Positions 2,095 through 24,937 of a stretch of DNA of 33,454 nucleotides are shown here, one piece after another. The position numbers and the translations under genes were made by a program. The notes below the pieces were generated by a model. The model ran no database searches. It saw only the letters and a list, made by a program, of their open reading frames with translations, and was not told the origin of the DNA. Source of the DNA: Candidatus Levyibacteriota bacterium (GTDB taxonomy: Bacteria > Patescibacteriota > Microgenomatia > Levybacterales > UBA12049). The stretch spans positions 1-33,454 of the forward strand of contig PRDT01000015.1 in NCBI GenBank assembly GCA_003173995.1, read 5' to 3'. Position 1 is the first letter of the stretch, and each line of letters starts with the position of its first letter.

Positions 2095-3825
2095 ATGCTT
2101 TCTATTGAAAGTAAAGAATATCTATATTTTCCTAATACGAAAGGCAAAAGTTTGTCTTATACTGCATATATGTTGTTGGCTGTAAAAAAGCTGTTTGGGG
2201 GAAATCAGACGTTTATTTTTTTTGTTGCAATCACTATTCTTGCATTTATTTTACGGCTGTGGATGTTAGGATCCGTTCCATATGGACTATCTAATGATGA
2301 ATCAGGATACATCTATAGCTCTTATAGCATTTGGCATACAAGCCATGATGTCGCAGGGAAATTCTTACCTCTTTCAATAAATTTAGATAATTCATTTTCT
2401 CCAGTCTATATCTATACTGATGCACCTTTTGTAGGAATTCTGGGACTCTCTCCCTTTGCGGGAAGATTGCCGTATGCCTTGATAAGTGTGTTGTGTATTC
2501 CCCTTCTTTTCTTTTTGACAAGACTTCTTACGAAAAACAATGCCATTGCTCTTTTAGCTGCTTTTGGGCTTGCTGTATCACCTTGGCATCTGCAACTTTC
2601 AAGAGGTGCACTTGATGCTGATTTTGCGCTATTTTTCTATTTACTTGGCATCTATCTCTTTTGCCTTAAACCATCGAAATTAAAATATATCTTTTTTTCT
2701 CTTATTGCATTTTTGCTAGGATTTTACAGCTACCATGCAACAAAAATCTTTTTTATTTTCCTTCTTCCAATTCTATTTCTTTACTATCAACAGCTATTAA
2801 GAAAACACAAGATGGTAACAGCACTTTTCCTTGTAGGATGCGTTAGTATCTTTCTTTCATTTATATATATATCCAAAACTCAAAATGTTACTCGCCAACA
2901 AGTACTCCTCTTTAGTGATACACAGACTGCAGCAAAAGTAGTCAATGCAGAAAGAGCGTATAATAATGCACCTGCTCTTTTGAAAACAATCTTCAGCAAT
3001 AAATTACTGTTTCAACTACGAATAGTGAGAGAAAATTATTTACAAGCATTCTCTCCACAATATTTATTTTTATATGGCGAGCCAAGTAGTCTCAAACAAC
3101 AGTATAGCTTCTTTACAAGTGGAGAGCTCTATATTCTTGAATTACCATTTTTACTTATTGGTCTCTATGCACTCTTCCGATATAAATACAGTAAATTTCC
3201 ACTGCTGATGCTCCTCATTGCACCTCTTCCATCTGCTTTTTCTCTTGATCTTTCCTATATCAATAGAAGTATCATGATGCTTCCATTTTTAGAAATTATT
3301 GTTGGCATTGGACTTTACACAAGTTATCAATATTTTGAGAGAAGAAAAAAATATACCATTGCTTTTATCAGTATCATTACTATCATCTTCTTATTTCTTT
3401 TTTCAGAATACCTCTATACCTACTATTTTCGTTATCCAAATTTTGGAGCAGAAGGATGGAGAGCTAGTAGTAAAGATATTTCTCAATATGTAGGATTAAA
3501 TCATGCAAAATATAAAGATGTTTACATAGTAAATAATGAAAGGATGTTTTTACTGCAATATGGCATTTGGAATACAATCGCTCCAGGAGCTATGCAAACT
3601 TTATGGAAGAATTTTGACACAAATGCTTCTTTGGGAAATGTCCACTTTATTACTTCTTGTCCAAAAGATCTTCAATTTTATACAAAGCAAAATACACTTC
3701 TGGTTACAAAAAATCCTTGTGAGCCTGATATGAAACCCACAGAAAAAATAGTAGATAAAGCAGAGACTTTGCGTACTATCTGGTATATATACAGACTTCA
3801 AGAAGAACCGCAATTACTTCAGTAA
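2095..3825 (+). CDS. GT-C fold membrane glycosyltransferase (ArnT/PMT-like, GT39/GT83 type)
   Basis: Roughly a dozen hydrophobic helices span the first ~430 aa, followed by a soluble ~140-aa C-terminal domain. An acidic SNDESGY motif sits in the first extracytoplasmic loop, as in ArnT/PMT enzymes. An alternative ATG at 2170 would relieve the 14-bp divergent spacing to the kinase gene. Confidence 0.75.
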   Translation: MLSIESKEYLYFPNTKGKSLSYTAYMLLAVKKLFGGNQTFIFFVAITILAFILRLWMLGSVPYGLSNDESGYIYSSYSIWHTSHDVAGKFLPLSINLDNSFSPVYIYTDAPFVGILGLSPFAGRLPYALISVLCIPLLFFLTRLLTKNNAIALLAAFGLAVSPWHLQLSRGALDADFALFFYLLGIYLFCLKPSKLKYIFFSLIAFLLGFYSYHATKIFFIFLLPILFLYYQQLLRKHKMVTALFLVGCVSIFLSFIYISKTQNVTRQQVLLFSDTQTAAKVVNAERAYNNAPALLKTIFSNKLLFQLRIVRENYLQAFSPQYLFLYGEPSSLKQQYSFFTSGELYILELPFLLIGLYALFRYKYSKFPLLMLLIAPLPSAFSLDLSYINRSIMMLPFLEIIVGIGLYTSYQYFERRKKYTIAFISIITIIFLFLFSEYLYTYYFRYPNFGAEGWRASSKDISQYVGLNHAKYKDVYIVNNERMFLLQYGIWNTIAPGAMQTLWKNFDTNASLGNVHFITSCPKDLQFYTKQNTLLVTKNPCEPDMKPTEKIVDKAETLRTIWYIYRLQEEPQLLQ

Positions 3826-6799: not shown

Positions 6800-7206
6800 T
6801 AGTCTTCAAGATCTTTTGGAGGATACTTTTTCCCTCTCACAACTACTTCTAACTCTACATCTTTTGTCTTAAATAATTTTTTGAAATGCTCAATAATGGG
6901 CTTTGGGTCAAATTCTTTGCAGGAATAGACATCAATAGTGACGAATCTTCTTTTAATAAATGTATGAATACTGATGTGAGACTCTTGAATCATCACAAAT
7001 CCAGACCATCCACCAGGATCCTTAATACCATTTGGTTGTGCAAATAAAACAACAGGATCGATAAGCTTTCTCATTCCCATTTTGCCAGGAAGTGTGTCTA
7101 ATTCCTTTTGCACCAAATCCTTATCATCTAATGATTTTGGATCGCAGTTATACATATCCATCATTAAGTGAAGCCCAAACGGCTTACGCTTATTGAATAA
7201 ATTCAT
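6799..7206 (-). CDS. speD: Pyruvoyl-dependent S-adenosylmethionine decarboxylase proenzyme family (small bacterial/archaeal class 1)
   Basis: 135 aa with GLHLMMDMYNC near the N-terminus. The self-cleavage motif IQE|SHISIHTF is present, where the Ser becomes the pyruvoyl group. Substrate (AdoMet versus Arg/Orn) cannot be decided by eye. Confidence 0.8.
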   Translation of the reverse strand: MNLFNKRKPFGLHLMMDMYNCDPKSLDDKDLVQKELDTLPGKMGMRKLIDPVVLFAQPNGIKDPGGWSGFVMIQESHISIHTFIKRRFVTIDVYSCKEFDPKPIIEHFKKLFKTKDVELEVVVRGKKYPPKDLED

Positions 7207-7309
7207 ATCAAAACCGTATCATTACTTCTCATCCCTTGTCAAGGCAAAAGTAAACACAAAGTATTACTGTTATTTTTGGCTATGGATATGCTACGATGAA
7301 AAGAGTCCT

Positions 7310-8989
7310 ATGCTACTGCCCGATAGCCAGCTTAAATCGTTATTGCTCCAATCAAATACCTTGGACGCTCATTCACTAGAAGAGATCCAAAAATTTGCTA
7401 TTAATACACGTATTTCCTTGCAAGAAGCAGCAATTGAAAAGGACGCAATTTCTGATGAAAAATTAGGCCTTCTTATTGCCAATTATCTCAAGGTTCCATT
7501 TGTTACCCTTTCAAAAGTAACTGTCCCTGAAGCACTCTTTAGTATTGTCCCTGAAAGAATTGCAAGAAAATATAAAGTTGTTGCATTTGCTCGAGATAAT
7601 GAAGGGATCAAGCTTGCAATGGCAGATCCAACTAATAAAGAGCTCCAGCAGATGCTTGCAAAAAAAACACTTCAGAAAATAACTGCATATTTGGCAACAG
7701 AACGAGATATTGAGAATACTCTGCAGCTTTATAGAAAAGATCTGCAACAAACCTTCGATGCACTCTTGCAGGAGGCAATTGGTAATACAACAGGATCAGA
7801 TGATGCACCAATTGCAAAAATTGTTGACTTGCTTTTGACGTATGCATATCGAGATAAAGCCTCTGATGTGCATATAGAGCCAGAAGAAAAAGATTCACTT
7901 GTAAGATTTCGTATTGATGGTATTTTGCATGACGTATTGTATTTAGATAAAAAATTACATGACCGGGTGTTGACTCGTATCAAAGTCTTATCACGACTTC
8001 GAACTGATGAACATTTGAGCGCACAAGACGGAAAAATGCGTATGGAAGTTGACGATGATTTGCTTGATCTTCGTGTCTCTATTATTCCGATTGCTGAGGG
8101 AGAAAAAGTAGTCTTGAGACTTCTTGCTTCAAAATTCAGACAATTCTCACTTGTCGACTTGGGAATGAACGAGCGGGATTTACAAAAAGTGAATAGTGCC
8201 ATTAACAAATCTTATGGCATGATCCTCTCAACAGGCCCTACGGGTAGCGGTAAAACTACCAGTATATATGCAATTTTGAAAATTCTTAATACTCGCGAAA
8301 AAAATATCACAACGATTGAAGATCCAGTTGAATATCGTATTAAAGGGGTTAACCAAATCCAGGTAAATGTAAAAACCAATCTCACCTTTGCAAGTGGACT
8401 ACGAAGTATTCTAAGACAAGATCCAAATGTTATTTTCGTTGGAGAAATCCGAGATAGTGAGACAGCTGGTATTGCGGTTAATGCTGCACTCACCGGGCAC
8501 TTGGTGGTATCAACACTTCACACCAATGATGCAGCAACAGCACTTCCCCGTCTTATTGATATGAAGATAGAGCCATTTCTTGTTGCCTCAACTGTTAATG
8601 TCATCATCGCGCAAAGACTTGTCAGACAAATTTGTGAGGCTTGTAAAGCTCCTCGAACAATTAAAAGAATTGATCTGATCCAAAATATTCCTGAAGAAAC
8701 TGTTACCAAAAGAATGGGACATACAGAAATAATTAATGTCTTCCAAGGACAAGGTTGTAAAGTCTGTCACTTCACTGGCTACGCAGGACGTATTGGAGTC
8801 TTTGAAGTAATTGAGCTCACGCCAACAATTCGAAAGCTTATCAGTGAAAAAGCAGATTCAGATGCTATTGCAGTAGAAGCAGAAAAGGAAGGAACCACCT
8901 TCATGCTAGATGATGGACTTGAGAAAGTGAAAAAAGGTATGACAACAATTGAAGAAGTCCTGCGTGTCACAAAAGTGGAGTCTTTATAA
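7310..8989 (+). CDS. pilB: Type IV pilus/T2SS assembly ATPase (GspE/PilB family)
   Basis: N-terminal T2SSE_N-like domain, Walker A GPTGSGKTT, Walker B/Asp box IFVGEIRD, His box GHLVVSTLHTND, and a tetracysteine motif CEAC...CKVC. The track start (TTG 7193) overlaps speD, so ATG 7310 is more plausible. Confidence 0.9.
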   Translation: MLLPDSQLKSLLLQSNTLDAHSLEEIQKFAINTRISLQEAAIEKDAISDEKLGLLIANYLKVPFVTLSKVTVPEALFSIVPERIARKYKVVAFARDNEGIKLAMADPTNKELQQMLAKKTLQKITAYLATERDIENTLQLYRKDLQQTFDALLQEAIGNTTGSDDAPIAKIVDLLLTYAYRDKASDVHIEPEEKDSLVRFRIDGILHDVLYLDKKLHDRVLTRIKVLSRLRTDEHLSAQDGKMRMEVDDDLLDLRVSIIPIAEGEKVVLRLLASKFRQFSLVDLGMNERDLQKVNSAINKSYGMILSTGPTGSGKTTSIYAILKILNTREKNITTIEDPVEYRIKGVNQIQVNVKTNLTFASGLRSILRQDPNVIFVGEIRDSETAGIAVNAALTGHLVVSTLHTNDAATALPRLIDMKIEPFLVASTVNVIIAQRLVRQICEACKAPRTIKRIDLIQNIPEETVTKRMGHTEIINVFQGQGCKVCHFTGYAGRIGVFEVIELTPTIRKLISEKADSDAIAVEAEKEGTTFMLDDGLEKVKKGMTTIEEVLRVTKVESL

Positions 8990-10041
8990 TGATTACGAAA
9001 AAAATTACTATTTCAAATAATGATAAGCTCAGTCTGGTGAGCAATCTCTCCACCATGCTCTCAGCAGGTATTCCTATTTTAGAAACTGTTGATTCACTTC
9101 AAGAAGATGCCAAGGGTAATGTCAAAAAAATTCTTGATGAACTTTCAGAGGATCTTATTCAAGGAAGACATATGTATTCAACGTTTGAGAAATTTCCGTA
9201 CGTGTTTGATAAAGTCACGGTCAATATTGTGAAAGCCTCAGAAGAAGCAGGAACGCTTGAAACAACATTAAAGGACATGAAAGACCAAATAAAAAAAGGT
9301 ATGGAGTTTAATGACAAAATTAAAAGTGCTCTTACCTATCCAATATTTATTGGATTTGTCTTTATTGCTGTTATGTTACTAATCCTTGTCGTTGTAGTGC
9401 CAAAAATTTCAACTGTTTTTTCACGTCTGACAGTGACACTACCTCTTCCAACAAAAATACTTATTTTTGCTTCAGATTTAGTTGTCAAACAACCACTTCC
9501 AACATTTAGTGGTATTGCTATTGTTGTCGGAGGAATTGTACTCCTTTACCGCTCACAAAAAAGACTTTTCTTGAGATTTATTTTCCTTTTGCCGCTTGTT
9601 ACCAAATTGGTTCAGCAAATTGATCTGACACGATTTTCAAGAAGTATGTACCTTCTCTTAAGCTCAGGTATTACTATTACATCCGCACTTGAACTCGCTC
9701 AAGAAGTCGTTGTTAAGCCAGAAATTGCAGCTGCCATCAGTCACTCAAAAGAGATGATATTGGCAGGACGCAACTTATCGGAAGGATTTAAGGATAGAAA
9801 AAATGTTTTCCCTGGCGTCATTATAAAAATTATTGAAGCAGGAGAACGAACCGGAACACTTGATAAATCAATGCAAGATATTTCCGAGCATTTGGACTAC
9901 GAGGTTAATAATACGTTAAAAACATTAACAACAGTACTTGAGCCTCTGATGTTGGTAGTTGTTGGCGTGATGGTAGGTGGCATGATGCTTGCAATTATCG
10001 CTCCTATTTATAGTCTTATTGGATCCGTTGGAAATAGATAA
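8989..10041 (+). CDS. pilC: Type IV pilus platform protein (GspF/PilC family)
   Basis: Two T2SSF repeats with three TM helices (LSAGIPILETV..., LLSSGITITSALE...). The start overlaps the pilB stop (TAATG at 8987-8991). Confidence 0.9.
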   Translation: MITKKITISNNDKLSLVSNLSTMLSAGIPILETVDSLQEDAKGNVKKILDELSEDLIQGRHMYSTFEKFPYVFDKVTVNIVKASEEAGTLETTLKDMKDQIKKGMEFNDKIKSALTYPIFIGFVFIAVMLLILVVVVPKISTVFSRLTVTLPLPTKILIFASDLVVKQPLPTFSGIAIVVGGIVLLYRSQKRLFLRFIFLLPLVTKLVQQIDLTRFSRSMYLLLSSGITITSALELAQEVVVKPEIAAAISHSKEMILAGRNLSEGFKDRKNVFPGVIIKIIEAGERTGTLDKSMQDISEHLDYEVNNTLKTLTTVLEPLMLVVVGVMVGGMMLAIIAPIYSLIGSVGNR

Positions 10042-10043
10042 GT

Positions 10044-10538
10044 ATGGGAAAATATATACTTCGTGAGCAAAAGGGATATACATATCTTGAAGTCATTTTG
10101 GTCATGGCAGTGATGACTATTCTTTTGGGATTTATCACTATTAATTTATTAAATGCACATAAGTCTACTTCACAAAGTACTTCTATCACAGCCATTGCAT
10201 CAGACCTTCGCAATCAACAATTTAATGCAATGGTCGGAAGTACTGAAGGTCGAACAACTTCAGATAGTTACGGCCTATATATTACTCCAACCTCATATGT
10301 ACTTTTTCATGGCACAGCCTATTCTCCATCTGATACTTCCAATCTTACAGTCAATATCCAAAATGGCTTCCAACTTACTACAACACTTTCTAATTCCCTT
10401 ATTATTTTTTCTCATGGGAGTGGTGAGGTTAAAAATTATAATGCCAATAACAACACCATTACGCTTACTGATACGACAAATAATACCCAAAAAACACTCC
10501 GTATTAATCAATATGGTGTGGTTACACAAGTAAATTAA
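10044..10538 (+). CDS. Minor pilin / pseudopilin with a prepilin-type signal
   Basis: N-terminus REQKG|YTYLEVILVMAVMTILLGF: Gly at -1, Glu at +5, then a hydrophobic helix. Confidence 0.8.
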   Translation: MGKYILREQKGYTYLEVILVMAVMTILLGFITINLLNAHKSTSQSTSITAIASDLRNQQFNAMVGSTEGRTTSDSYGLYITPTSYVLFHGTAYSPSDTSNLTVNIQNGFQLTTTLSNSLIIFSHGSGEVKNYNANNNTITLTDTTNNTQKTLRINQYGVVTQVN

Positions 10539-10539
10539 T

Positions 10540-12459
10540 ATGAAAATTTTCTCATCACGCGGACAATCACTTGTTGAACTCTTAGTCACTATTGGTATTG
10601 CTGCAATACTTGTTCCAGCGTTATTTTCTGGATTTATGACTTCTCGCTCAGGAAAAGCACAACTTGAACAACGCATTGATGCTACTTCTATTCTTAAGCA
10701 AGCTGTTGAGGCAGTACGAGTCACACGGGAAAATTCATGGTCAAATGTCGCGACAAATGGTACATATCATCCAGTGATAAATGGCACAACGTGGTCCTTA
10801 GCAACAGGAAGTGCCACAACAAATGGCTATACAACCCAAGTAGTGGTTGGTGATGTATATAGAAATAATGGAGCTATTGTTTCAAATGGTGGGACATTAG
10901 ATACTTCAACCAAAAAGGTGACTATCAGTGTTAGTTGGGGAACTCCACTACCAACAGCAGTAAGTTCGACACTTTATTTTGCTCGGTATGTTAATACAAC
11001 TTATACCGAGACTTCACTTGCTGATTTTAATGATGCAAATGCAAGTAAAAGTGGTGTGACTGTTACGAATGTCTCAGGAGGAGAAGTTGTTTTGGGCGCA
11101 GGGGGAGGAGGAGATTGGTGTGCTCCCAATCTTTCCATTGCATCATATGATTTGCCCGGTCAAGGAATTACAACTTCTATCAGCGCCATTCAAGGACATG
11201 CATATACGACAACAGGCTATAACGCGTCTGGGAATTCTATGGATAGTGTCAATATTAGTAATACCAAACCTCCCGTTGCAAGTAATGGTGGTTCGTATAA
11301 CAATTTTAAAACCTATGGTATCTTTGCAGATACATCATATGTATATCTCACTTCCAATCACCCTGGTCTTACTGTTGATATTGTCCAAGTCACTAGCTCA
11401 CCATATACGCAAGTTGGCACTTTTAATGCTTCCGGTGGAGGAAATGGACAAAGTGTCTATGTCTCAGGAACTACTGGGTATGTCACAGCAGGAAGTTATT
11501 TATATGCATTTGATCTGACAAGTAAGAATGGGGCTCGTACACAACTTGGCAGAATTGCCCTTGCAGGGACAGGAAATAAAGTTATTGTGGTTGGATCGTA
11601 TGCCTATGTTGTAACCTCAAGTACCACAACGCAACTGCAAATTATTAATGTATCAAATCCAGCCAGTATGAGTATTGTGTCAAATATTAATGTCAATAAT
11701 AACCAAGGTGGCGTTGATGTTTTTGTTAATACCAGTGGCACGTTTGCCTATTTAGTAACAACCTATACATCTGGCAGTCCAGACTTTTTTATTATTGATG
11801 TTTCAAATAAAGCAAGTCCTGTCCTCAAGGGTACATACAGTACGAATGGTATGACACCAAAAGGAGTTACTGTTGTCCCAGGCAATCGAGCAATTATTGT
11901 TGGCTCTGGAGGTGAGCAATATCAAGTCTTGAATATTACTTCTGTCACCTCACCAACTCGTTGTGGAGGACTTACCAATCCGGATAGCTCAACAAGTATC
12001 AATGCCATTGCCTCAGTTCTTGAAAATGATGGGGATGCCTATTCATATATTTTGACTGATAATGCAAGTCAAGAGCTGCAAATTATCGAAGGAGGTCCAG
12101 GTGGTCAATATGCAGCATCTGGCACTTTTACCTCTCGCCCATTTAATGTAGGAAGTGAAGTGAGCTTTAATAGATTTAACACTACTTTTACTCAACCAGC
12201 CCAAACAACAATTCAATTCCAGGTGGCAGTAGAACATGCCAATAATGGGAGCTGTACAACAGGAGTTAATTATTCATTTGTTGGACCAGACGGGACAGCG
12301 AATACGAAATTTACCACTGGCTCTATGTTGCCATTAAGTAATGATGGGACTGGATATGAAAACCCCGGACAATGTCTCAAATATAAAGCTTTTCTCAATT
12401 CAACCGATACAACCCAAACACCAGAATTGGATGATATTACATTCAATTATTCATTATGA
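10540..12459 (+). CDS. Giant minor pilin: prepilin signal, seven LVIVD-type beta-propeller repeats and a beta-sandwich domain (candidate tip adhesin)
   Basis: N-terminus SSRG|QSLVELLVTIGIAAILV with Glu at +5. Residues ~193-518 carry seven repeats such as YAYVVTSSTTTQLQIINVSNPASMSIV and FAYLVTTYTSGSPDFFIIDVSNKASPVLKG. The C-terminal ~120 aa ends in KYKAFLNSTDTTQTPELDDITFNY. Confidence 0.8.
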   Translation: MKIFSSRGQSLVELLVTIGIAAILVPALFSGFMTSRSGKAQLEQRIDATSILKQAVEAVRVTRENSWSNVATNGTYHPVINGTTWSLATGSATTNGYTTQVVVGDVYRNNGAIVSNGGTLDTSTKKVTISVSWGTPLPTAVSSTLYFARYVNTTYTETSLADFNDANASKSGVTVTNVSGGEVVLGAGGGGDWCAPNLSIASYDLPGQGITTSISAIQGHAYTTTGYNASGNSMDSVNISNTKPPVASNGGSYNNFKTYGIFADTSYVYLTSNHPGLTVDIVQVTSSPYTQVGTFNASGGGNGQSVYVSGTTGYVTAGSYLYAFDLTSKNGARTQLGRIALAGTGNKVIVVGSYAYVVTSSTTTQLQIINVSNPASMSIVSNINVNNNQGGVDVFVNTSGTFAYLVTTYTSGSPDFFIIDVSNKASPVLKGTYSTNGMTPKGVTVVPGNRAIIVGSGGEQYQVLNITSVTSPTRCGGLTNPDSSTSINAIASVLENDGDAYSYILTDNASQELQIIEGGPGGQYAASGTFTSRPFNVGSEVSFNRFNTTFTQPAQTTIQFQVAVEHANNGSCTTGVNYSFVGPDGTANTKFTTGSMLPLSNDGTGYENPGQCLKYKAFLNSTDTTQTPELDDITFNYSL

Positions 12460-12962
12460 AAATTTTTGTTAAACGCACAATTTTATCTAAAGGCACCACA
12501 ATGGTGGAGATGCTTCTTTATATGGGCATCTTCTTGTTGTTACTCGGCACAATGATGCAACTTTTTTCATCCATCCTTGATGTCCGGCTTGAGTCAGATG
12601 CTACCTCGAGTGTGACACAAGATGGACGTTATATACTTGCTCGTTTTACCTATGACCTACAAAATGCACAAAGCATTGCTACTCCCGCTTCAGCAGGAGG
12701 AACTGCTCCAACGATGCAATTTGTCACGAGCGGCATAACATATACGTATTCGTTAGTAAGCGGTAATTTACAAGTAAGTGATGGCACAAATACTAATATT
12801 CTTAATAGCTATGATACGTCTGTAAGTAATGTTTCTTTCCAAAGACTTGGAAATACCAATGGGAAAAATACTGTTACCATATCATTTACACTCACCAGTG
12901 CAACAAAAAGAGTTAAGGGGTTTGAAGTGAAAACTTTCCAAGAGACAGCAGGACTGAGATAG
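12456..12962 (+). CDS. Minor pilin / pseudopilin with a prepilin-type signal
   Basis: N-terminus LSKG|TTMVEMLLYMGIFLLLLG with Glu at +5. ATGA overlap with the preceding gene at 12456-12459. Confidence 0.75.
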   Translation: MKIFVKRTILSKGTTMVEMLLYMGIFLLLLGTMMQLFSSILDVRLESDATSSVTQDGRYILARFTYDLQNAQSIATPASAGGTAPTMQFVTSGITYTYSLVSGNLQVSDGTNTNILNSYDTSVSNVSFQRLGNTNGKNTVTISFTLTSATKRVKGFEVKTFQETAGLR

Positions 12963-12963
12963 T

Positions 12964-13356
12964 ATGAAGAAAATTATTTTTCAACAAAAAGGCCAAGCAC
13001 TCGTAACACTTCTTTTCTTTATGGTTATTGCTGTTACTATTACATCAGCAGCAGTAGTCTTGATTGCTACTAATTCGCTTGCTGCAAGTAGATTTGAGCA
13101 AGGAACAGATGCTCTAGATATCGCAGAAAGTGGTGTAGAAAATGCACTACTTCGCTTAGATCGTGACCCTTCTTATACTGGAGAGACACTCAATGTGGGT
13201 ACAGGGACAGTAACCATTTCAGTGAGTCTTGGTAATCCAACTATTATTACCGCGACAGGATCTGCCAATCAAAATAATGCAACACGAACTATTCAAGTAA
13301 ATACTGTGTATAATAATGGTGCCCTAACTGTTACATCCTGGAAGGAGCTTTACTAA
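12964..13356 (+). CDS. PilX-N/GspK-like minor pilin lacking Glu+5
   Basis: N-terminus QQKG|QALVTLLFFMVIAVTITSAAVVL has Thr rather than Glu at +5. It is followed by LDIAESGVENALLRL, typical of PilX_N-type proteins. Confidence 0.7.
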   Translation: MKKIIFQQKGQALVTLLFFMVIAVTITSAAVVLIATNSLAASRFEQGTDALDIAESGVENALLRLDRDPSYTGETLNVGTGTVTISVSLGNPTIITATGSANQNNATRTIQVNTVYNNGALTVTSWKELY

Positions 13357-14165
13357 TGGCAAGACAAACATATCTGCTCTATGTTGAACCAGCTCGTCTG
13401 TTTTTTTACGCAGGTGCTACTGGAGCAGTGTTACAAGTACCAATTCCATGGGAAATCATGCATGACATGGAGATAACTGACAAAGAAAAATTGGCAGTCC
13501 TTCTTCAAACCTTTCTGAAAAATAATTCTATTGTTCCAGGCTCGGTAGTCATTGGTCTTTCACCACAAGTCACATTTGAAGGGACTATCTCTCCCCAACT
13601 GACAGCTGAGCAGCAAAAAGAGCAACTAGCACGTTTCTTGGATACAGTACCTTTTCAAAATGTCGCTTCCCAACTGGGAAAATTAGACAACGCTAATAAA
13701 GTCATTGCAGCAAATAAAGAAATGATCGATACCCTCAGGCACATTTTTGAAAAGCTAAAATTTTCTGTCTCTCATGCAATACCAGTGAGTGCTTTACAAG
13801 TAATGGCACCAGAACTGCAGACAAATTTAGATATGGGAACTATTTTGAGTAAAGCGGATCTCGCCCATCAATACAATTTAATTTCTCAATCTCCTGCTCC
13901 GGCACAGCAAAGTCCAAATGCACCCAAAACACCCCCTCCACCGATCATGAAAAATAAGCAGACACTGACGTTAATCGCAGTCTTTGGCGTATTAATGATT
14001 GTACTCGTCATTATGGTATTTACTGTACTTATCCCACAAAGCCAACCTGTAAAGAAGCCACCGCTCAGTGCACTCCCTGCTGTCCCTACTCCAACTCCAA
14101 TTAGTATTGCAAGTCAATCCGCCCAACTCAAGCCAGTAGTTACCTCAACAGTAGTTCCTCATTAA
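13356..14165 (+). CDS. Candidate pilus-assembly membrane protein (PilM N-terminal-half-like cytoplasmic domain, one TM helix, Pro-rich tail)
   Basis: Its start overlaps the previous stop (TAATG at 13354-13358). The ~190-aa cytoplasmic part loosely follows the PilM pattern (VVIGLSPQVTFEGTISPQLTAEQQKEQLARFLDTVPFQNV ... VIAANKEMIDTL...FSVSHAIPVSALQ). A TM helix LTLIAVFGVLMIVLVIMVFTVLI and a P-rich tail follow. The ORF is solid; the function is tentative. Confidence 0.5.
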   Translation: MARQTYLLYVEPARLFFYAGATGAVLQVPIPWEIMHDMEITDKEKLAVLLQTFLKNNSIVPGSVVIGLSPQVTFEGTISPQLTAEQQKEQLARFLDTVPFQNVASQLGKLDNANKVIAANKEMIDTLRHIFEKLKFSVSHAIPVSALQVMAPELQTNLDMGTILSKADLAHQYNLISQSPAPAQQSPNAPKTPPPPIMKNKQTLTLIAVFGVLMIVLVIMVFTVLIPQSQPVKKPPLSALPAVPTPTPISIASQSAQLKPVVTSTVVPH

Positions 14166-14601: not shown

Positions 14602-15129
14602 ATGACATCTGCCCGACAAACAATTAAAAATCAACAAGGTTTCACCCTCATCGAACTTCTTGTCGTTATCGGAATTTTAGCAGTTCTCCTTGCAATTACG
14701 CTTATCGCTATTAATCCAGCACGACAATTTGCACAAGCAAATAATACAAAAAGAAATAGTGACATCAATGCAATATTGAATGCGATTGGTCAATATGCTG
14801 CAGACAATCATGGTACATTACCAGCACAATCAACTGCTGGAGGAGCAAAAGCTTTGAATGCAACGAATTGTCCAACAGCTACTCCTTGTGCTATAACTGG
14901 AGTTATTGGAGCAGGAAATGTTGATCTTTGTCCAGATCTAGTTACAAATTATTTAGCAGCTTTACCTTCAGACCCACTCACAAATAATGGCACACCTGTT
15001 CAAACCTGCAATGCTACTTATACAACAGGCTACACTGTATCAGTAAGTGCAACCAACAATAGAGTTACAGTAAATGCTCCAGCAACTGAGATTCCTCCAG
15101 CCACAGCAGCGCTGACAGTAACTCGCTAA
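14602..15129 (+). CDS. pilA: Major type IV pilin
   Basis: N-terminus KNQQG|FTLIELLVVIGILAVLLAITLIAINPARQF is a canonical prepilin cleavage/methylation motif with Glu at +5. The globular domain has four Cys and a Thr/Ser/Ala-rich C-terminus. The gene has its own long upstream region. Confidence 0.88.
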   Translation: MTSARQTIKNQQGFTLIELLVVIGILAVLLAITLIAINPARQFAQANNTKRNSDINAILNAIGQYAADNHGTLPAQSTAGGAKALNATNCPTATPCAITGVIGAGNVDLCPDLVTNYLAALPSDPLTNNGTPVQTCNATYTTGYTVSVSATNNRVTVNAPATEIPPATAALTVTR

Positions 15130-15139
15130 CTCGATTAAC

Positions 15140-15391
15140 ATGAACGAGAAAAGTGTAAAAGCAATAATTTCCCTCCTGATAGTATTAATTTCTTTTTCTC
15201 TTTTTATGATCTTCTATAATAACCAAGAGAATCTGACTTCCCCATCAGTTTTCCCAATGTTTATGACACTTGCAGTTGTTGCAGCAGGACTTCTCGTCTC
15301 GCTCGTGTACTTAGTTAATAATAGTAAGCACCATGTCGCTAAGTCAGTTGCTAAGAAAGCCTCTAGCCCCTCAAAGAAAAAGAGAAAATAG
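15140..15391 (+). CDS. Small two-TM membrane protein with a Lys-rich tail (83 aa)
   Basis: Two hydrophobic helices (AIISLLIVLISFSLFMIF and MTLAVVAAGLLVSLVYLV) and the tail KKASSPSKKKRK. It starts 10 nt after the pilA stop. Confidence 0.55.
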   Translation: MNEKSVKAIISLLIVLISFSLFMIFYNNQENLTSPSVFPMFMTLAVVAAGLLVSLVYLVNNSKHHVAKSVAKKASSPSKKKRK

Positions 15392-15448
15392 TTCTTTTTT
15401 CATTGACACCATAACCATTCCCTGATATCGTTTTTGTAGAGAGAATTT

Positions 15449-17152
15449 ATGAGAGCCTTGCTGAAAAAGATTTCCCAACCATGTAACCAACTAACTGTTG
15501 GCGCACTTTTCTTTATTCTTTTCAGCTTTCTTGCCAATACCTTTCATGAGAAATACCCAGATGAATTCGATAATATTCTCGGAGGGTGGTTTGTTATTCA
15601 TGGTCATCCTCTCTATACAGGCTTTTTTACCCACCATGGACCGGTAGCGTATCTTCTTGCCGGAATAATTGAAATTTTTACTAGACGATCATTTGTTGCT
15701 TTTCGTATAGTCTATGCTCTTTTTCTTTTTGTTTTCTCTAGTGGCATCTATCTTTATTTTAAAAAAAGATTTGATGAAGTCAGTACTCGATTTTATCTTT
15801 TATTTCTTGTCTTCATTGGTCTTTCTACAACCTACTTCTGGGGTCATATGTTGCTCGCAGACTCACTTTCATCATTTTTGCTTACTCCAGTAGTGTTTCT
15901 CTTAACGCTTCTTACTCTAGAGAAGAAAAATCTTATGACAAAAGATATTTTCTTGATTTCTATCTTGACCAGCCTAGCTACTCTCGCTGCACTCACCTAC
16001 ATTTATTTTGCCGCAATTGTTTATTTGTATACTTTTTTTCTTATACTCAAAGAGAAAAAGGACGTATCTCACATAGCAAAGGCAATCGGACTTATGGCAA
16101 TTCCTTATGGTATCTTTCTTATCTATTTTCTCCTAACAGGCAGTCTTACTGCATACATTACTCAAGCGATTATTTTTAATGGCAAATATTATGCCTATAC
16201 CTATCCTGGTATTGGGCAAGGTCAATTTCTTAATCCATTCAAACAAATAGTTATTATTAGTCATGACTTCTTTATTAATTTTTACTTACTCCTTCGACAA
16301 GTAAAAGATTTGAATGTGAATTTTCCTTTTAATATCACTCTTGCAGTTGCTGATGTCGGATTTCTTATCTATCTTTGCCTAAGGAAAAAATTTAGTCTTG
16401 CACTATTTTTCTATTTACTTCTTACTTTTGCGAATGCGAGAAGTAATCCTCTTACATCAGGTGAAACAGACTACCAATCAGCAGTCTATATTACACTTTC
16501 TTTTGCTTCTTTAGCTTTTATTCTTTTTGCCTTCTGGGATTATCTTCAAGAGACACTAAGTCATCCAAAGCGTCTTATTGCCTCAGTAGTTTATATTATT
16601 GTCGCAATCTATGCATTCTTTGGTATTCTTTTTGTCGGACATAAATTCGTCAATCATGTGTATTTGAAATATATGCATCTTGAAGGAGGTATTAAAGATA
16701 CGCCACACATAGCACCAATTCTTAATTCACTCACAACAAAGAATGATTATATTTGGATAGGGCCATTCTCTTTTGAAGAGTTGTGGTATAGCAATGCAAA
16801 AGTTCCATCCAATTTTATTATTCTTTTACCAGAATTTCCTCATATTCCAGGAGTAACACAAAAAATGATGCAGGAATTTAATGAAAATAAACCGCTCGTT
16901 ATTTACTTCAATCAAGATCAAGGAGTACGAGGGTATGTACCATACAACTATGCACCATTTTTCATTGATTTTCTGAAGGAAAATTATGTGACGGTAGCCC
17001 AGTATAAAAAAGGCAAAACCACATATGAAAATACTATTCAGATTACAGGAGACTTGGATATCCAAAATAAGTTATTCTTACGAAAAGACCAAGCAGATGT
17101 ATTGATACAAAAGATGCTGCAATTAGGATATATTCATCAGAAAGAAAAATAA
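15449..17152 (+). CDS. Polytopic membrane protein, GT-C-like glycosyltransferase candidate
   Basis: About 12-13 TM helices in the first ~400 aa and a soluble ~170-aa C-terminal domain. An acidic YPDEFDNILGG motif follows TM1 directly, in the position of the GT-C DxD/ExD motif. No closer family recognised. Confidence 0.55.
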   Translation: MRALLKKISQPCNQLTVGALFFILFSFLANTFHEKYPDEFDNILGGWFVIHGHPLYTGFFTHHGPVAYLLAGIIEIFTRRSFVAFRIVYALFLFVFSSGIYLYFKKRFDEVSTRFYLLFLVFIGLSTTYFWGHMLLADSLSSFLLTPVVFLLTLLTLEKKNLMTKDIFLISILTSLATLAALTYIYFAAIVYLYTFFLILKEKKDVSHIAKAIGLMAIPYGIFLIYFLLTGSLTAYITQAIIFNGKYYAYTYPGIGQGQFLNPFKQIVIISHDFFINFYLLLRQVKDLNVNFPFNITLAVADVGFLIYLCLRKKFSLALFFYLLLTFANARSNPLTSGETDYQSAVYITLSFASLAFILFAFWDYLQETLSHPKRLIASVVYIIVAIYAFFGILFVGHKFVNHVYLKYMHLEGGIKDTPHIAPILNSLTTKNDYIWIGPFSFEELWYSNAKVPSNFIILLPEFPHIPGVTQKMMQEFNENKPLVIYFNQDQGVRGYVPYNYAPFFIDFLKENYVTVAQYKKGKTTYENTIQITGDLDIQNKLFLRKDQADVLIQKMLQLGYIHQKEK

Positions 17153-17154
17153 TT

Positions 17155-17700
17155 ATGGCTACCGAATTAGCAACATTTGGAGGAGGATGCTTTTGGTGCA
17201 CCGAATCAATTTTTAAAAGACTCAAAGGGGTTATTTCTGTCACTTCAGGCTACTCGGGTGGTACAACAGATAATCCAAATTGGGAAAGTGTCCATACTGG
17301 TACTACTGGACATGCAGAAAGCATCCAAATAGAATTTGACCCATCAATTATTCCTTTTGAAAAATTGTTGGACATCTTCTGGTATAGCCACAACCCAACA
17401 ACACTTAATCAACAAGGAGCTGATAAAGGTACCCAATATCGCTCTGCAATTTTTTACCATAATGACAAGCAGAAAGAGATCGCAGAAAAATCAAAAGAAG
17501 AGTTTGCTCATTCGGGTAAATATCAAGATCCTTTGGTGACGGAAATAACTCCCTTTACCAATTTCTATCCAGCTGAGGCAGAACAACAAAATTTTGAGGA
17601 AAAATATTCCAATTCTCCCTACTGCTTTTTAGTGATAGATCCAAAAATCCAAAAGCTCATGAAAGAATATGGCAATGACGTAAAAGAGGAGTATAAGTAA
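17155..17700 (+). CDS. msrA: Peptide-methionine (S)-S-oxide reductase
   Basis: The catalytic motif GGGCFWCTE lies at the N-terminus, with family-wide conservation (GHAESIQIEFDP, QGADKGTQYRSAIFY). No signal peptide. Confidence 0.93.
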   Translation: MATELATFGGGCFWCTESIFKRLKGVISVTSGYSGGTTDNPNWESVHTGTTGHAESIQIEFDPSIIPFEKLLDIFWYSHNPTTLNQQGADKGTQYRSAIFYHNDKQKEIAEKSKEEFAHSGKYQDPLVTEITPFTNFYPAEAEQQNFEEKYSNSPYCFLVIDPKIQKLMKEYGNDVKEEYK

Positions 17701-18093
17701 TTACTTTTTGCCAACAAATTGCCAGCAGTTACCTTCTGGGTCAAGAAAAGTACAGAAGTATACTTGATTGTCAGGAGTTGAAAAAGGTGCTAAAAATGGC
17801 TTGGCAACTATAGTAACTTCTGGAAGATCTTTTATTTTTTCATACCAATGCATGACGCCTTCTTCTGGATACAGGTTAAATAAATGTCTGAAATTTTCCT
17901 TGGCTTTACCTTTCACTTCTGAATGCTTCCCAAGCCAGACATTCAAATCTCCCACAACATGCATCATATATCCATAGTCTCCTGGGATATCAAGATGATT
18001 AAGCAGTTCAAATCCCAAGACGTCGCGATAAAAAGGCATGAGCGTATCTGGATTTTCTGAATAAATAAGAATTCTATAGTTAGTAAATGCCAT
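17701..18093 (-). CDS. VOC-family (glyoxalase/bleomycin-resistance fold) protein
   Basis: 130 aa. The N-terminal pattern RILIYSENPDTLMPFYRDVLGFEL and the C-terminal LDPEGNCWQF are typical of the glyoxalase/VOC fold. Confidence 0.75.
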   Translation of the reverse strand: MAFTNYRILIYSENPDTLMPFYRDVLGFELLNHLDIPGDYGYMMHVVGDLNVWLGKHSEVKGKAKENFRHLFNLYPEEGVMHWYEKIKDLPEVTIVAKPFLAPFSTPDNQVYFCTFLDPEGNCWQFVGKK

Positions 18094-18113
18094 ACAGTCT
18101 ATATAACAAAAAT

Positions 18114-19235
18114 TTAACCAAAGGTAAAGGTGAAAAGTTGAATTCCCGGCCCAAATTCCAGTTGGAGAGTATGTTCACCCGCTTTGCCATGAAGATTGAC
18201 TAAGTGATACAAGCGCTGTGAATCAACACTTACAGTACTTCCCTTTATATCTTCACCTGCATTTTCTGAAGTTATTTCTTTGCTATCGAGCAAAACATGA
18301 ACACTTCCATTCTTTTGATTGCCAGGACCCACCACCATATAGACGTTATTTGCTGTGAATTGATACTTCACAACTGCACTTGCTCCTGCTTGTGCATATT
18401 CATTGAGAATATTCCATCCACCACCAAAAGCAAACGTATTCAAAGGTACTGAAGTGGGGAGAGTAAAAGTCTGAATTCCAGTTGGAAGTGTTCCATTAGA
18501 AAAGAAATATGCCATACGGGATGCTCCAAAATAAGTCTCTGGCGATATCTCCTCATGGGGTGTTTGATCTGGCATATTTTCTATATTAGTAGCTACTTTT
18601 TGACCTGCTTCTTTAAGAAGTTGTTGAATTGCCTTTTCACTTTGATCATATTCTCCCTCTCCAAAATGAGTCCTTCTCACATTACCTTGTGCATCAATAA
18701 GATATTCTGCTGGCCAATACTCATTGGAATAATTTGTCCAAGTAGTGTAGTTGTTATCCTGCCCTACTGGATAATGAATACCAAATTGTTTAATTGCATT
18801 TTCAACATTCCCTGTATCTTTTTCAAAGGCAAATTCCGGAGTGTGTACTCCTATCACTACAAATCCCTTATCTTTATATTTGTCATACCACGCAGTCACA
18901 TGAGGAAGCGTTCGAATACAGTTAATGCAGGTATACGTCCAGAAATCAACCAACACCACTTTTCCTTTCAAATCTTTGAGAGAAAGCGATTTATCAGTAT
19001 TGAGCCATTTAGTAATTCCAACAAAATTCGGAGCAGAATAATTTGTATTGAAAAGAGCATTTGTATTAAATAAATGACTGCCCTGTTGATTGCGAATTTG
19101 TTGCAGTTGATTGGTTACAACATCGCTACTTTCAATGCCATTTAAAAAGTGTTGATATGAAGGGATCATATCCAACAATTTTGCCTCAACAACTTTATCA
19201 TAATTAGTCACAATGCCAAATGCAGCCAAAAGCAA
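18114..19235 (-). CDS. Thioredoxin-fold (TlpA/redoxin-like, CxxC) plus C-terminal beta-rich domain; distal part of a frameshifted DipZ-like gene
   Basis: VVLVDFWTYTCINCIRTLPH carries a CxxC redox motif in a TlpA/redoxin context, followed by a ~150-aa C-terminal domain as in DipZ. Its frame stays open upstream of the nominal TTG start and encodes the missing last helix of the CcdA domain (see findings). Confidence 0.8.
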   Translation of the reverse strand: MLLAAFGIVTNYDKVVEAKLLDMIPSYQHFLNGIESSDVVTNQLQQIRNQQGSHLFNTNALFNTNYSAPNFVGITKWLNTDKSLSLKDLKGKVVLVDFWTYTCINCIRTLPHVTAWYDKYKDKGFVVIGVHTPEFAFEKDTGNVENAIKQFGIHYPVGQDNNYTTWTNYSNEYWPAEYLIDAQGNVRRTHFGEGEYDQSEKAIQQLLKEAGQKVATNIENMPDQTPHEEISPETYFGASRMAYFFSNGTLPTGIQTFTLPTSVPLNTFAFGGGWNILNEYAQAGASAVVKYQFTANNVYMVVGPGNQKNGSVHVLLDSKEITSENAGEDIKGSTVSVDSQRLYHLVNLHGKAGEHTLQLEFGPGIQLFTFTFG

Positions 19236-19852
19236 AATGAAGCCAAATACTTGTTGGATTTTCCCAAGGTAGGGAGAAAAAATACGCGATTTGGTGAGAA
19301 GCCATTTCCCCCCAAAGTAAAAAAGAACAAGGGAATTCCAACACCGATAATATAGACAACTGTCACAAGAATAATCTCAATTGACACCTTTTGTGTTGAG
19401 GCAAGTGTTGCAATAGTGGCAAGAATTGGCCCTGCACATGGTGTCCATATAATTCCTAATGTCAAACCAGTCAAAAATCCTCCCCCAAATCCATTTGTCT
19501 TGTCTTGTTTTATCCCTATTGATCCACTCAACCTACTTACCATTGCTTCAAGGCGTGCTGAAAAAGCAGGTATCAAAAGTGACAAACCAAGAAGCGCAAT
19601 GATTGCAACAGCAAGATAGCGCAAAATATTCGGATCAAAAGGGATAATATGAATGATATAAGTCAGAAAAAGTGTCAGGAGTCCAAAACTTACACAAATG
19701 CCTATGGTTATTCCAAGAGGCTTTCTGTGTCCACCTGTTGTTGTACTAGATAACACAAGTGGTAAAAGTGGCCAAATACACGGTGCTGCAATTGTGATAA
19801 GCCCTGACAGAAATGCAAGAATGAGGAAAAGAAGCATATCTCTATTACACAT
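19208..19852 (-). CDS. CcdA/DsbD-family thiol-disulfide transporter membrane domain; proximal part of a frameshifted DipZ-like gene
   Basis: Two conserved membrane Cys motifs are present (ITIAAPCIWPLLP and IIWTPCAGPIL). The reading frame leaves the conserved sequence after ...FFFTLGG at the G6 run (plus-strand C6, 19308-19313). The likely true start is the Met of MLLFLIL at 19835-19837. Confidence 0.8.
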   Translation of the reverse strand: MCNRDMLLFLILAFLSGLITIAAPCIWPLLPLVLSSTTTGGHRKPLGITIGICVSFGLLTLFLTYIIHIIPFDPNILRYLAVAIIALLGLSLLIPAFSARLEAMVSRLSGSIGIKQDKTNGFGGGFLTGLTLGIIWTPCAGPILATIATLASTQKVSIEIILVTVVYIIGVGIPLFFFTLGGNGFSPNRVFFLPTLGKSNKYLASFCFWLHLAL

Positions 19853-22127: not shown

Positions 22128-23010
22128 CTCCTTTCAAAAAATAGTCGTACACTGCTTTTGATATTTTTCCTATTGTGTCATTGGCATCATATGAATTAGT
22201 ACTTTTACTTAAAACAACAATTATATAGGGTCCATTTGGAGCGTACACAATTCCCGCATCATGAGAGAAAGAATCCAACTCTCCTGTCTTATGAGCAATC
22301 ACGGTATTACTTGGTAAATATTTAGGTAACTTTTCCTTGAATTGTTGGCTTTTCAATAAATCAATCATGTAACTCGTTGACGATGGATTTCCCAATTGTC
22401 CCTTATACAGCTTTTCTAGAAAAAGGCTAACATCAGATGCTGTTGAGACAGGAACACCATTTGTGCCACCTAGGTGTGAATAGCTTAATTTGTTATCAGT
22501 AAGAAATTTTGAGATTGCTTCTTCACTTATTTTTTGTGTCAAAAGAAGCGCTGCATAATTATGTGAAATAGTAACCATTTGTGTGAGTGCATCGTTGACA
22601 GAGAGAGTTATTGTTCCATCGGTCAAATCTGCATCTTCACTTGCAATGTGAAATTCCTGATTGAGATGATCTACGTCATCGCTTAGTATTTCATCTTTTT
22701 GTATTTTTCCTTTTTCTATTTCCTGAACCACTGTACTCATAACCCACAATTTATAAAGACTTCCTGTTGCAAAATATTTCCCACTATTAAAACCATATGA
22801 TTCTCCTGTTTTGAGATTTTTAATATAAATTCCAAAGGTACCACTTTTACTTTTGAGTACTTGTTGTACAGCATCTTGTAGCGAATGCTGGCCTTCTTTT
22901 TTCTGTGTATGTGAGTGAAAAATCCACACCAATCCTACTCCACATATAACAAGAACGAGGAGAATTAAAAGTCTTTGTAATACCTGTTGGGATCTTCTTC
23001 GACGTATCAT
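22105..23010 (-). CDS. Membrane-anchored serine hydrolase with a class-A beta-lactamase/penicillin-binding fold
   Basis: N-terminal TM anchor. The motifs appear in the canonical order: SxxK (TGSLYKL), SxN-like (ISHNYAA) and KTG (AHKTGEL). ATGA-type 4-nt overlap with the permease gene. Confidence 0.75.
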   Translation of the reverse strand: MIRRRRSQQVLQRLLILLVLVICGVGLVWIFHSHTQKKEGQHSLQDAVQQVLKSKSGTFGIYIKNLKTGESYGFNSGKYFATGSLYKLWVMSTVVQEIEKGKIQKDEILSDDVDHLNQEFHIASEDADLTDGTITLSVNDALTQMVTISHNYAALLLTQKISEEAISKFLTDNKLSYSHLGGTNGVPVSTASDVSLFLEKLYKGQLGNPSSTSYMIDLLKSQQFKEKLPKYLPSNTVIAHKTGELDSFSHDAGIVYAPNGPYIIVVLSKSTNSYDANDTIGKISKAVYDYFLKGGEEKNEK

Positions 23011-24221: not shown

Positions 24222-24937
24222 TATAAAATGATTGCTCCTTTCTTTGCTTTTTTCTGATGAGGATTTTTCTTGTCAGATAATACATTTCCATCACGAATCG
24301 TAATAATCCTCTTTGCATGATCTGCTATATCCAGCTCATGAGTAATCATGACAATAGTATGCCCCTCCTTTTCATTAATCTCTTGGAAAATTGCCATGAC
24401 CTCTTCGGCTTGTGCGGAGGCAATGTTGCCTGTTGGTTCGTCAGCAAGTAAAATGCTTGGATTCATCGCAAGTCCTCTTGCAATAGCAACACGTTGTTGT
24501 TGACCTCCTGAAAGCTGATTAGAGTAGTGTTCCATCCGCTCAGAAAGTCCCACCATCTTTAGATATTTTTTTGCTTTTTCTATACGCTCTTCATAAGGGA
24601 TACCTGCATATCGCATCGGAAGCATTACATTTTTGAGAGCTGATGTTCGAGGAAGTAAATTAAATGCCTGAAAAATAAAACCTATTTTTCTATTACGAAT
24701 ATCTGCTAAAGAATCATCGGTGAGCTTACTTACTTCTTCACCATCAAGTGTATAAGTCCCAGATGTGGGTGTATCAAGTGCTCCAAGGATATGCATAAGT
24801 GTTGACTTACCGCTTCCTGAGGGGCCCATGATAGCAACAAACTCTCCTTTTTTTATATTGAAAGAGACATCATGGAGTGCTTCTGTCTCAATGGTGCCAC
24901 TCTTGTAGATTTTCTTGATATGACTAACATTTATCAT
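24221..24937 (-). CDS. ABC transporter ATP-binding protein (MacB/LolD-type)
   Basis: Walker A GPSGSGKST, Q-loop, signature LSGGQQQRVAIAR, Walker B ILLADEPTGN, and H-loop ITHE. Confidence 0.93.
   Translation of the reverse strand: MINVSHIKKIYKSGTIETEALHDVSFNIKKGEFVAIMGPSGSGKSTLMHILGALDTPTSGTYTLDGEEVSKLTDDSLADIRNRKIGFIFQAFNLLPRTSALKNVMLPMRYAGIPYEERIEKAKKYLKMVGLSERMEHYSNQLSGGQQQRVAIARGLAMNPSILLADEPTGNIASAQAEEVMAIFQEINEKEGHTIVMITHELDIADHAKRIITIRDGNVLSDKKNPHQKKAKKGAIIL

Follow-up and report, generated by a model that had tools for sequence, protein, structure and literature searches.

In this study, we report the computational analysis of a gene, named BIG here, in a pilus operon of a Candidatus Levyibacteriota bacterium (assembly GCA_003173995.1, contig PRDT01000015.1, positions 1 to 33,454; this whole stretch of 33,454 nucleotides is referred to as the window). 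BIG encodes 639 amino acids (aa), and an earlier note, made from the sequence alone, had described its product as a minor pilin with a seven-bladed LVIVD-type beta-propeller inserted into a beta-sandwich, and as a candidate pilus-tip adhesin. As stated there, BIG is the second gene after pilC (T2SSF, 8989-10041), and the product, put at about four times the size of its neighbours, is 3.8-4.9 times as long as the neighbouring pilins (164, 168 and 130 aa). The residue ranges given in that note were right to within a few residues. The features of the gene, with the evidence for each, are the following.

10540-12459, forward strand: BIG, modular minor-pilin gene, 639 aa (open reading frame and translation as quoted in the earlier note)
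10540-10563, forward strand: class III (prepilin) leader MKIFSSRG, ending in Gly at position -1 (G8 invariant in a 61-sequence alignment)
10564-10734, forward strand: alpha-1 helix, aa 9-65, with Glu at +5 (E13) and conserved Pro26 (AlphaFold2 helix 7-65)
10735-10989, forward strand: pilin head beta-sheet, aa 66-150 (AlphaFold2 strands within 74-148; weak GspI and ComGE matches)
10990-11115, forward strand: N-terminal jelly-roll strands, aa 151-192, ending in the Gly-rich LGAGGGGD (predicted local distance difference test score, pLDDT, 81-91; coevolution with the last C-terminal strands; kept in the propeller-deleted chimera)
11116-12099, forward strand: LVIVD beta-propeller, seven blades, aa 193-520 (Pfam LVIVD, 28 AlphaFold2 strands, Foldseek, first-last repeat contact, Cys pair)
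12100-12456, forward strand: bulk of the jelly-roll, C-terminal, aa 521-639, with the probable disulfide C572-C612 (AlphaFold2 strands 522-638; chimera compared with carbohydrate-binding module, CBM, matches)

BIG starts 1 nucleotide past the stop codon of the preceding pilin gene, m1, and its stop codon overlaps the start codon of the following one, m3, as ATGA; these tight junctions suggest translational coupling of BIG with the adjoining pilin genes. The N-terminus, MKIFSSRG↓QSLVELLVTIGIAAILVP (the arrow marking the cleavage site), is a class III signal, with cleavage by a prepilin peptidase predicted at G8↓Q9. The motif was surveyed in 80 species-representative loci, and single residues were compared in an alignment of 61 homologues. 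Position -1 was occupied by Gly in 76 loci, Ala in three and Ser in one, Glu was present at +5 in 80/80, and G8, E13 and P26 were invariant in the alignment. The AlphaFold2 model of BIG, built on the same alignment (pLDDT 90.2; predicted template modelling score, pTM, 0.75) contained a pilin lollipop, with a helix at 7-65 followed by strands at 74-148, mostly at pLDDT 83-96. The conserved motif and the lollipop fold thus bear out the prepilin signal and Glu at +5 that had been read from the sequence. The N-methylation profile check gave a divided result, as Pfam N_methyl scored 17.2 bits on BIG, under the cutoff of 21.2, yet reached E<=0.01 in 20 of the 61 relatives; TIGR02532 was not reported for BIG in the profile scan. 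The same scan matched ComGE (E=0.022) and GspI (E=0.061), both far under cutoff, and ComGE was matched by one of the 61 relatives.

Residues 193-520 form the propeller. Pfam LVIVD (PF08309) scored 32.8 bits on BIG against a gathering cutoff of 20.2 (E=4.3e-8) and matched 60 of the 61 relatives (best E 2.4e-16), while only two of the seven repeats of BIG reach individual scores. A strict LVIVD-like motif, h-x-h-h-[DNEQ]-h-[STG], occurred five times, compared with 0.41 expected and a maximum of three over 2000 shuffles; two degenerate copies bring the total to seven, at a spacing of 41-52 aa, with motif strands at 234, 279, 320, 366, 416, 461 and 513. In the model, 28 strands lie between residues 197 and 518, equal to seven blades of four, and Foldseek retrieved propellers of seven blades from WD40 proteins and DDB1, among which the ATG16L1 WD40 domain (5nuv; template modelling, TM, score 0.81 by target length, root-mean-square deviation, rmsd, 3.3 A) was the best compact match. 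The seven-bladed propeller of the earlier note is therefore upheld by both of the checks it had proposed for it, the LVIVD profile and structure prediction with Foldseek. Neither an unpredicted propeller nor orthologues without the G-x4-E motif, which the note would have counted against its own reading, was found. Only four Pfam families (LVIVD, N_methyl, Beta_propel and ComGE) were matched by BIG and its 61 relatives. No RCC1 match was obtained in BIG or the relatives, nor any PilY1/PilC profile match in BIG (E<=1) or the relatives (E<=0.01), and PilY1 was not among the 50 Foldseek PDB matches listed for the model. A sequence search of full-length BIG against the PDB gave nothing meaningful.

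The relation of the propeller to its flanks was analysed by coevolution, using mean-field direct coupling analysis (DCA) on 227 full-length homologues (effective number of sequences, Neff, 208). The strongest coupling in the whole protein, 221-513, belongs to a cluster joining 207-241 to 487-514, which supports contact between the first and last propeller repeats and so places the entry and exit of the propeller close together. A velcro beta-ladder reading of the coupling between 513-518 and 220-224 was dropped, since the raw pairs gather in a cluster of contacts and form no clean ladder. Of the 100 strongest couplings, three join the N-terminal flank (151-192) to the C-terminal region, and none was found between this flank and the pilin head or the propeller. 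In scans of about 1220 registers each, strand 152-158 paired best with 630-636, antiparallel (z=5.0), and strand 182-189 independently paired best with 622-629 (z=4.8); known neighbouring strands, used as positive controls, gave z=4.4-7.9.

A propeller-deleted chimera, in which residues 1-190 were joined to 521-639 and aligned to intact homologues, folded at pLDDT 90.3 with the same strands kept in both flanks. Its non-pilin part matched CBM6 (2cdp), CBM61 (2xom), CBM86 (6sgf), CBM22, the PNGase C-terminal domain (2g9f) and a gingipain adhesin domain in Foldseek, at TM scores of about 0.35-0.48 (target length) over 163-191 columns, more than the 119-residue C-terminal piece alone; the CBM jelly-rolls were matched at 0.43-0.48, with E of 1e-5 to 3e-3 and rmsd of 5-9 A, over 163-177 columns. 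The sandwich would be interrupted by a 328-aa insertion, the propeller. Both connectors are Gly-rich (LGAGGGGD and GGPGG) and lie within the most conserved segments of BIG, the inter-domain junctions 181-210 and 511-540. Because coevolution, the propeller-deleted chimera and ring closure agree, the propeller is likely to be inserted into a loop of a CBM-like jelly-roll through these two connectors; the suggestion that the flanks are two parts of one beta-sandwich now has three independent, indirect lines behind it. An alignment of the flanks only matched no Pfam family, PDB structure or CBM family by profile search, so that the sandwich cannot be named by sequence, and sugar-binding residues were not identified in it. 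Podovirus tail nozzle proteins (P22 gp10 and phage Pa223) recurred in Foldseek for both the full model and the chimera. Homology to them was considered and the likeness was treated as generic, with a low TM score (0.14-0.47) and a high rmsd; these nozzles may share a jelly-roll plus propeller arrangement.

All four Cys of BIG were invariant in the 61-homologue alignment, and exactly four Cys were present in 165 of the 227 full-length relatives. Variants of about 1020-1070 aa (P0005, P0023 and P0035) carry a tandem duplication of approximately residues 181-523 and so have two propellers. The W-C-x-P and C-G-G-L cysteines are present in each of the two, and the C-terminal pair stays single. This duplication of the Cys pair along with the propeller supports the pairings C194/C475 and C572/C612 put forward earlier, and two disulfides, C194-C475, which would staple the ring, and C572-C612, are probable. 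In one locus with a double-propeller variant (L002, 8001-11057), BIG and m3 are separated by an additional gene of 302 aa. As a separate observation, the window contains genes for MsrA (17155-17700), a thioredoxin/AhpC-like protein with Thioredoxin_10 (18114-19235, reverse strand) and a DsbD/CcdA-like membrane protein (19208-19852, reverse strand), 5-7 kb downstream of the four-Cys BIG, which may form an extracytoplasmic redox-maintenance set.

BIG lies in a cassette, pilB-pilC-m1-BIG-m3-m4-X-pilA. Of the 45 loci with full flanks, 39 had all eight genes in this order, and the remaining six were collinear subsets. The other genes of the cassette in the window are listed below.

7193-8989, forward strand: PilB/GspE-type assembly ATPase (T2SSE E=8e-126, MshEN)
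8989-10041, forward strand: PilC/GspF platform protein (T2SSF E=1.6e-50)
10044-10538, forward strand: minor pilin m1, H position, 164 aa (GspH E=1.2e-5 and ComGD E=5.5e-5, both sub-cutoff; G↓F..E motif)
12456-12962, forward strand: minor pilin m3, J position (N_methyl in 6/7 orthologues; weak ComGF match)
12964-13356, forward strand: minor pilin m4, without Glu at +5, K position, 130 aa (weak PilX_N in 3/7 orthologues)
13356-14165, forward strand: gene X, bitopic membrane protein (position conserved; very weak GspL match, E=0.18)
14602-15129, forward strand: major pilin PilA (N_methyl 38.3 bits, TIGR02532)

The pilB reading frame opens at TTG and encodes 598 aa; since its orthologues are 560-561 aa long, the true start is probably Met40, at nucleotide ~7310. 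The four consecutive minor-pilin genes m1, BIG, m3 and m4 have a conserved order, and one of them, m4, lacks Glu5: Glu at +5 was found in 0/59 motif-matching m4 orthologues, and m4 reads G↓QALV(T/M/V/I)LL at this place. In described systems the HIJK minor pilins form a tip-located complex that is capped by the Glu5-less subunit and starts assembly (PMC10191384), and by this analogy m4, not BIG, is probably the topmost subunit of the tip complex. The absence of Glu+5 in m4 is a hallmark of a GspK/PilK-type cap, yet m4 is the smallest pilin of the operon and GspK the largest of its own. Gene X, which evolves fast (27-29% identity), encodes an N-terminal domain of ~200 aa, one transmembrane segment and a Pro-rich tail, a GspL-like topology, and is a possible GspL/PilM-N-like assembly component; if its GspL match is genuine, the operon would be collinear with gspE-F-H-I-J-K-L. 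Judged from the GspH/ComGD hints for m1, the GspI/ComGE hints for BIG, the Glu5-less m4 and the GspL hint for X, the cassette order is a mirror of GspE-F-H-I-J-K-L and ComGA-GB-GD-GE-GF-GG, and BIG would by gene position be the I subunit (GspI/PilI/ComGE position) of the tip complex.

The predicted first mature residue (+1) differs among these pilins. It is Gln in BIG (window position 10564) and mostly Gln in m4 orthologues (window position 12994), with His, Tyr, Phe or others in a minority; in pilA, m1 and m3 it is generally Phe, but the m1 and m3 of the window have Tyr and Thr, respectively. Gln at +1 is unusual among pilins and could cyclise if unmethylated.

The search for the BIG family gave 552 word-indexed matches at about 44-59% identity, and an exhaustive search of 50%-identity representatives gave 391 at E<=1e-30. 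Relatives were present in at least 284 Microgenomates species-representative genomes, and those records with informative titles belonged to Levy-, Gottesman-, Ames- or Roizmanbacteria or to the 'Microgenomates group'. Many species-representative records with a typical Microgenomates pilus operon (L013, L017, L019, L020, L022 and others) were titled 'uncultured Gammaproteobacteria' or 'Pseudomonadales', and one 'Eisenbacteria'; these labels look unreliable. Mean pairwise identity over seven loci was 66% for PilB, 63% for PilA, 58% for PilC, 51% for BIG, 43% for m4, 41% for m3, 37% for m1 and 29% for X. Median identity to the window over the 80 loci was 65% for PilB, 58% for PilC, 55% for PilA, 48% for m4, 47% for BIG, 42% for m3, 36% for m1 and 27% for X. 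BIG is accordingly the best- or joint-best-conserved minor pilin (m4 being about equal in the 80-locus survey), and within it propeller and stalk are equally conserved, at 54% and 52-54% identity to the query, respectively. The earlier note had asked whether the gene is hypervariable compared with pilB and pilC. This was rejected, BIG being at ~47-51% identity compared with 36-48% for the other minor pilins, 58% for PilC and 65-66% for PilB. Its conservation fits a core component better than a diversifying host-range determinant, and suggests that BIG may belong to the core of the tip complex and have a conserved partner or ligand, and that it is not a fast-evolving host-specificity factor.

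Several other genes were observed around the cassette. Directly downstream of pilA lie genes for an 83-aa membrane protein (15140-15391) and a 567-aa polytopic membrane protein (15449-17152), neither of which had a significant Pfam or NCBIfam match; their position is reminiscent of the pilin-glycosylation genes that adjoin pilA in other bacteria. A PMT-family glycosyltransferase is encoded at 2095-3825. Two tandem proteins of ~620-640 aa (29234-31090 and 31094-33025) each have GH130 (beta-1,4-mannooligosaccharide phosphorylase) matches in two stretches, and a GH130 gene is also found near the pilus locus in L004 (1-947). On the reverse strand, a MacB-type ABC set at 23007-26235 comprises an FtsX/MacB_PCD permease (23007-24221), a 238-aa open reading frame that may be the ATPase (24221-24937) and an HlyD-family adaptor (24934-26235), the last being of note in an organism that presumably has no outer membrane. 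In L002, from a related genome, RCC1 repeats and Peptidase_M23 occur together in a protein of 1302 aa or more (15221-19057), the gene for which lies immediately beyond the pilus cassette and ~4 kb downstream of BIG; the propeller type of this protein is that of PilX2 of TM7x (Nanosynbacter lyticus).

From the domain architecture, motif conservation, operon position and taxonomic breadth computed here, we consider it fairly probable that BIG is a modular core minor pilin of the type IV pilus of Microgenomates (Patescibacteria, or candidate phyla radiation, CPR), with a head at the tip that most likely binds a conserved ligand. The pilin module is followed by an extracellular supermodule of ~490 aa, probably an LVIVD propeller within a jelly-roll, each domain with a conserved Cys pair. 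Prepilin peptidase would cleave BIG at G8↓Q9, and the mature protein would join m1, m3 and the Glu5-less cap m4 in a complex that primes filament assembly. As this complex would end at the pilus tip, each pilus would display a single jelly-roll and propeller head. The ligand of this head would be a conserved one, carried by a host cell or a substrate; candidates are a glycan, bound by the CBM-like sandwich, and a protein or polymer, bound by a propeller face. A glycan is the leading guess, as the sandwich has a CBM-like fold and an aromatic content of ~12-14%. A role as tip adhesin is plausible by analogy, since TM7x PilX2 and the Streptococcus sanguinis pilins PilB and PilC bind hosts or ligands. 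BIG would in this way merge roles that diderm type IVa pili divide between PilHIJK minor pilins and PilY1/PilC, a propeller protein that is not a pilin. A bolder and tentative proposal, which we hold to be rather doubtful, is that an I-position minor pilin absorbed a PilY1-like tip effector, and both primes assembly and presents a rigid lectin-like head conserved across the class Microgenomatia. If this were true, the ligand would have to be conserved and shared, for instance a common glycan of the cell envelope, and the recombinant head could be used as bait for the hosts or substrates of these uncultured bacteria.

Several results weigh against this interpretation. The resemblance to CBMs is at fold level only (TM score 0.43-0.48 for CBM6, CBM61, CBM86 and the PNGase C-terminal domain), and both the domain nesting and the disulfide geometry are deduced and not seen directly. 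The I position of BIG depends on gene order and sub-threshold profile matches, and profiles of the BIG pilin module and of the m1, m3 and m4 orthologues matched generic alpha-1 helices or nothing in the PDB, so that specific H/I/J/K orthology is not demonstrable. No A24 prepilin peptidase gene was found among the scanned open reading frames of the window. The uniformly high conservation of BIG, with the propeller as conserved as the stalk, is unlike a host-specific adhesin and fits a structural or priming role equally well. That role is the main rival: a PilY1-like head without specific adhesion could nucleate the minor-pilin complex or add to its stability, block or gate an envelope passage, oppose retraction or sense force. 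Besides the conservation along the whole length of this best- or joint-best-conserved minor pilin, it is favoured by the place of BIG among core HIJK-type genes, which are normally essential for assembly, and by the inter-domain junctions 181-210 and 511-540 being the most conserved segments. A lectin-like sandwich and propeller of ~490 aa would nevertheless be a large investment for a reduced genome, and comparable modules (PilX2, PilY1 and S. sanguinis PilB and PilC) bind ligands, and we regard this role taken by itself as unlikely, although priming and adhesion are not mutually exclusive.

The remaining explanations are much less probable than ligand binding by a tip pilin. CPR bacteria are thought to scavenge nucleic acids, and the weak ComGD, ComGE and ComGF matches of the minor pilins, in an operon collinear with comG, would suit a Com-like (competence-type) pilus in which the head is a DNA receptor that captures extracellular DNA for uptake. 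The propeller and jelly-roll are, however, acidic (family median net charge -12 and -6, isoelectric point ~4.3-4.8), which is unfavourable to DNA capture, and no DNA-binding fold was present among the Foldseek matches of the model or the chimera, making such a receptor improbable. Very improbable, by a shade more, is that BIG is not a pilus subunit at all, its N-terminus being an uncleaved membrane anchor of a cell-surface LVIVD protein encoded in a pilus operon. This would agree with the sub-cutoff N_methyl score (17.2 compared with 21.2 bits), with Gln at +1 in place of the usual Phe, and with the cell-surface location generally described for LVIVD proteins (PMC10210494 and PMC2447325), but the small residue at -1 and Glu at +5 in 80/80 orthologues, the lollipop fold of the model and the tight or overlapping junctions with the minor-pilin genes on either side speak for a pilin. 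The slightest chance is given to a pilus-displayed enzyme, in which the propeller and/or the sandwich, acting as its CBM, degrades or modifies a polymer of the host cell wall. Although CBM-like sandwiches usually accompany carbohydrate-active enzymes, some propellers are catalytic and GH130 genes occur in the window, no catalytic family was matched in the Pfam and PDB searches of BIG or the Pfam scan of the 61 relatives, no catalytic constellation was seen, and the invariant residues, for the most part Gly, Trp, Tyr, Pro and Cys, look structural.

The ligand-binding tip pilin is of interest because Microgenomates have no cultured representative. BIG is the sole large surface module of ligand-binding appearance in their conserved pilus operon, and thus a concrete and expressible candidate with which to ask what they attach to. 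It adds a structurally distinct modular pilin, with a domain-in-domain head on a core tip-complex pilin. Taken together with TM7x PilX2, it suggests that propeller-tipped pili arose more than once in Patescibacteria; the general picture of type IV pilus function is unchanged.

Modular pilins were defined by Raynaud et al. 2021 as a pilin module with a grafted domain that is not specific to type IV pili (PMC8179133). BIG has an N-terminal pilin module followed by LVIVD, as this definition asks, and its InterPro architecture is already present in Dataset S1 of that paper, which lists IPR012902-IPR013211 architectures including an 860-aa Falkowbacteria pilin with 12 copies (IPR013211 being LVIVD; PMC10210494). 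The S. sanguinis modular pilins PilB (pilin and vWA) and PilC (pilin and ConA-like lectin) act as adhesin and lectin (PMC8179133). BIG resembles these proteins in having a grafted module on an N-terminal pilin, presumed to be exposed at the tip, and differs in that the graft is a nested two-domain supermodule, not a single domain on a linker, and that the carrier would be a core HIJK-position pilin.

Within Patescibacteria, where pilin genes were found to be poorly conserved across phyla, the minor pilin PilX2 of Saccharibacteria TM7x has a seven-bladed propeller of RCC1 type, and efficient host binding depends on this pilin, and PilX1 bears a beta-jelly-roll (PMC11623550). PilX2 and BIG are both Patescibacteria minor pilins with a seven-bladed propeller; that of PilX2 is of RCC1 type, whereas that of BIG is LVIVD, without an RCC1 match, and BIG unites in one polypeptide the jelly-roll and the propeller that TM7x carries on PilX1 and PilX2. 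PilY1/PilC of diderm type IVa pili likewise places a seven-bladed C-terminal propeller at the tip through a PilHIJK-type complex and serves in adhesion and priming. PilY1 itself is no pilin and lacks a class III signal, whereas the propeller of BIG is covalently part of a minor pilin; the PilY1 propeller is of another family, IPR008707 (PMC8179133).

With GspI, PilI (PilV) and ComGE, BIG shares the second place among four minor-pilin genes, between an H-like and a Glu5-less K-like pilin. The known I-type subunits are the smallest pilins, of ~100-120 aa, without an extra module, and in the type II secretion system it is GspK that has an inserted domain. The description of the LVIVD family (PF08309/IPR013211) is based on cell-surface proteins of unknown function from archaea and bacteria (PMC10210494 and PMC2447325). 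BIG resembles these proteins in its score over the cutoff and in seven repeats of ~42-50 aa that fold as a propeller, and differs in that its repeats sit on a pilin stalk. The likeness of the flanks without the propeller to their best Foldseek matches, CBM6, CBM61, CBM86, CBM22 and the PNGase C-terminal domain, is one of fold. Our literature searches found no description of this Microgenomates family. BIG is thus a widespread, uncharacterised member of the modular minor-pilin class, the general design of which is already known, and it differs from the systems compared above in the LVIVD propeller, in the probable nested supermodule that joins both kinds of head in one chain, and in the carrier, by gene position a core I pilin, with its strictly conserved prepilin signal.

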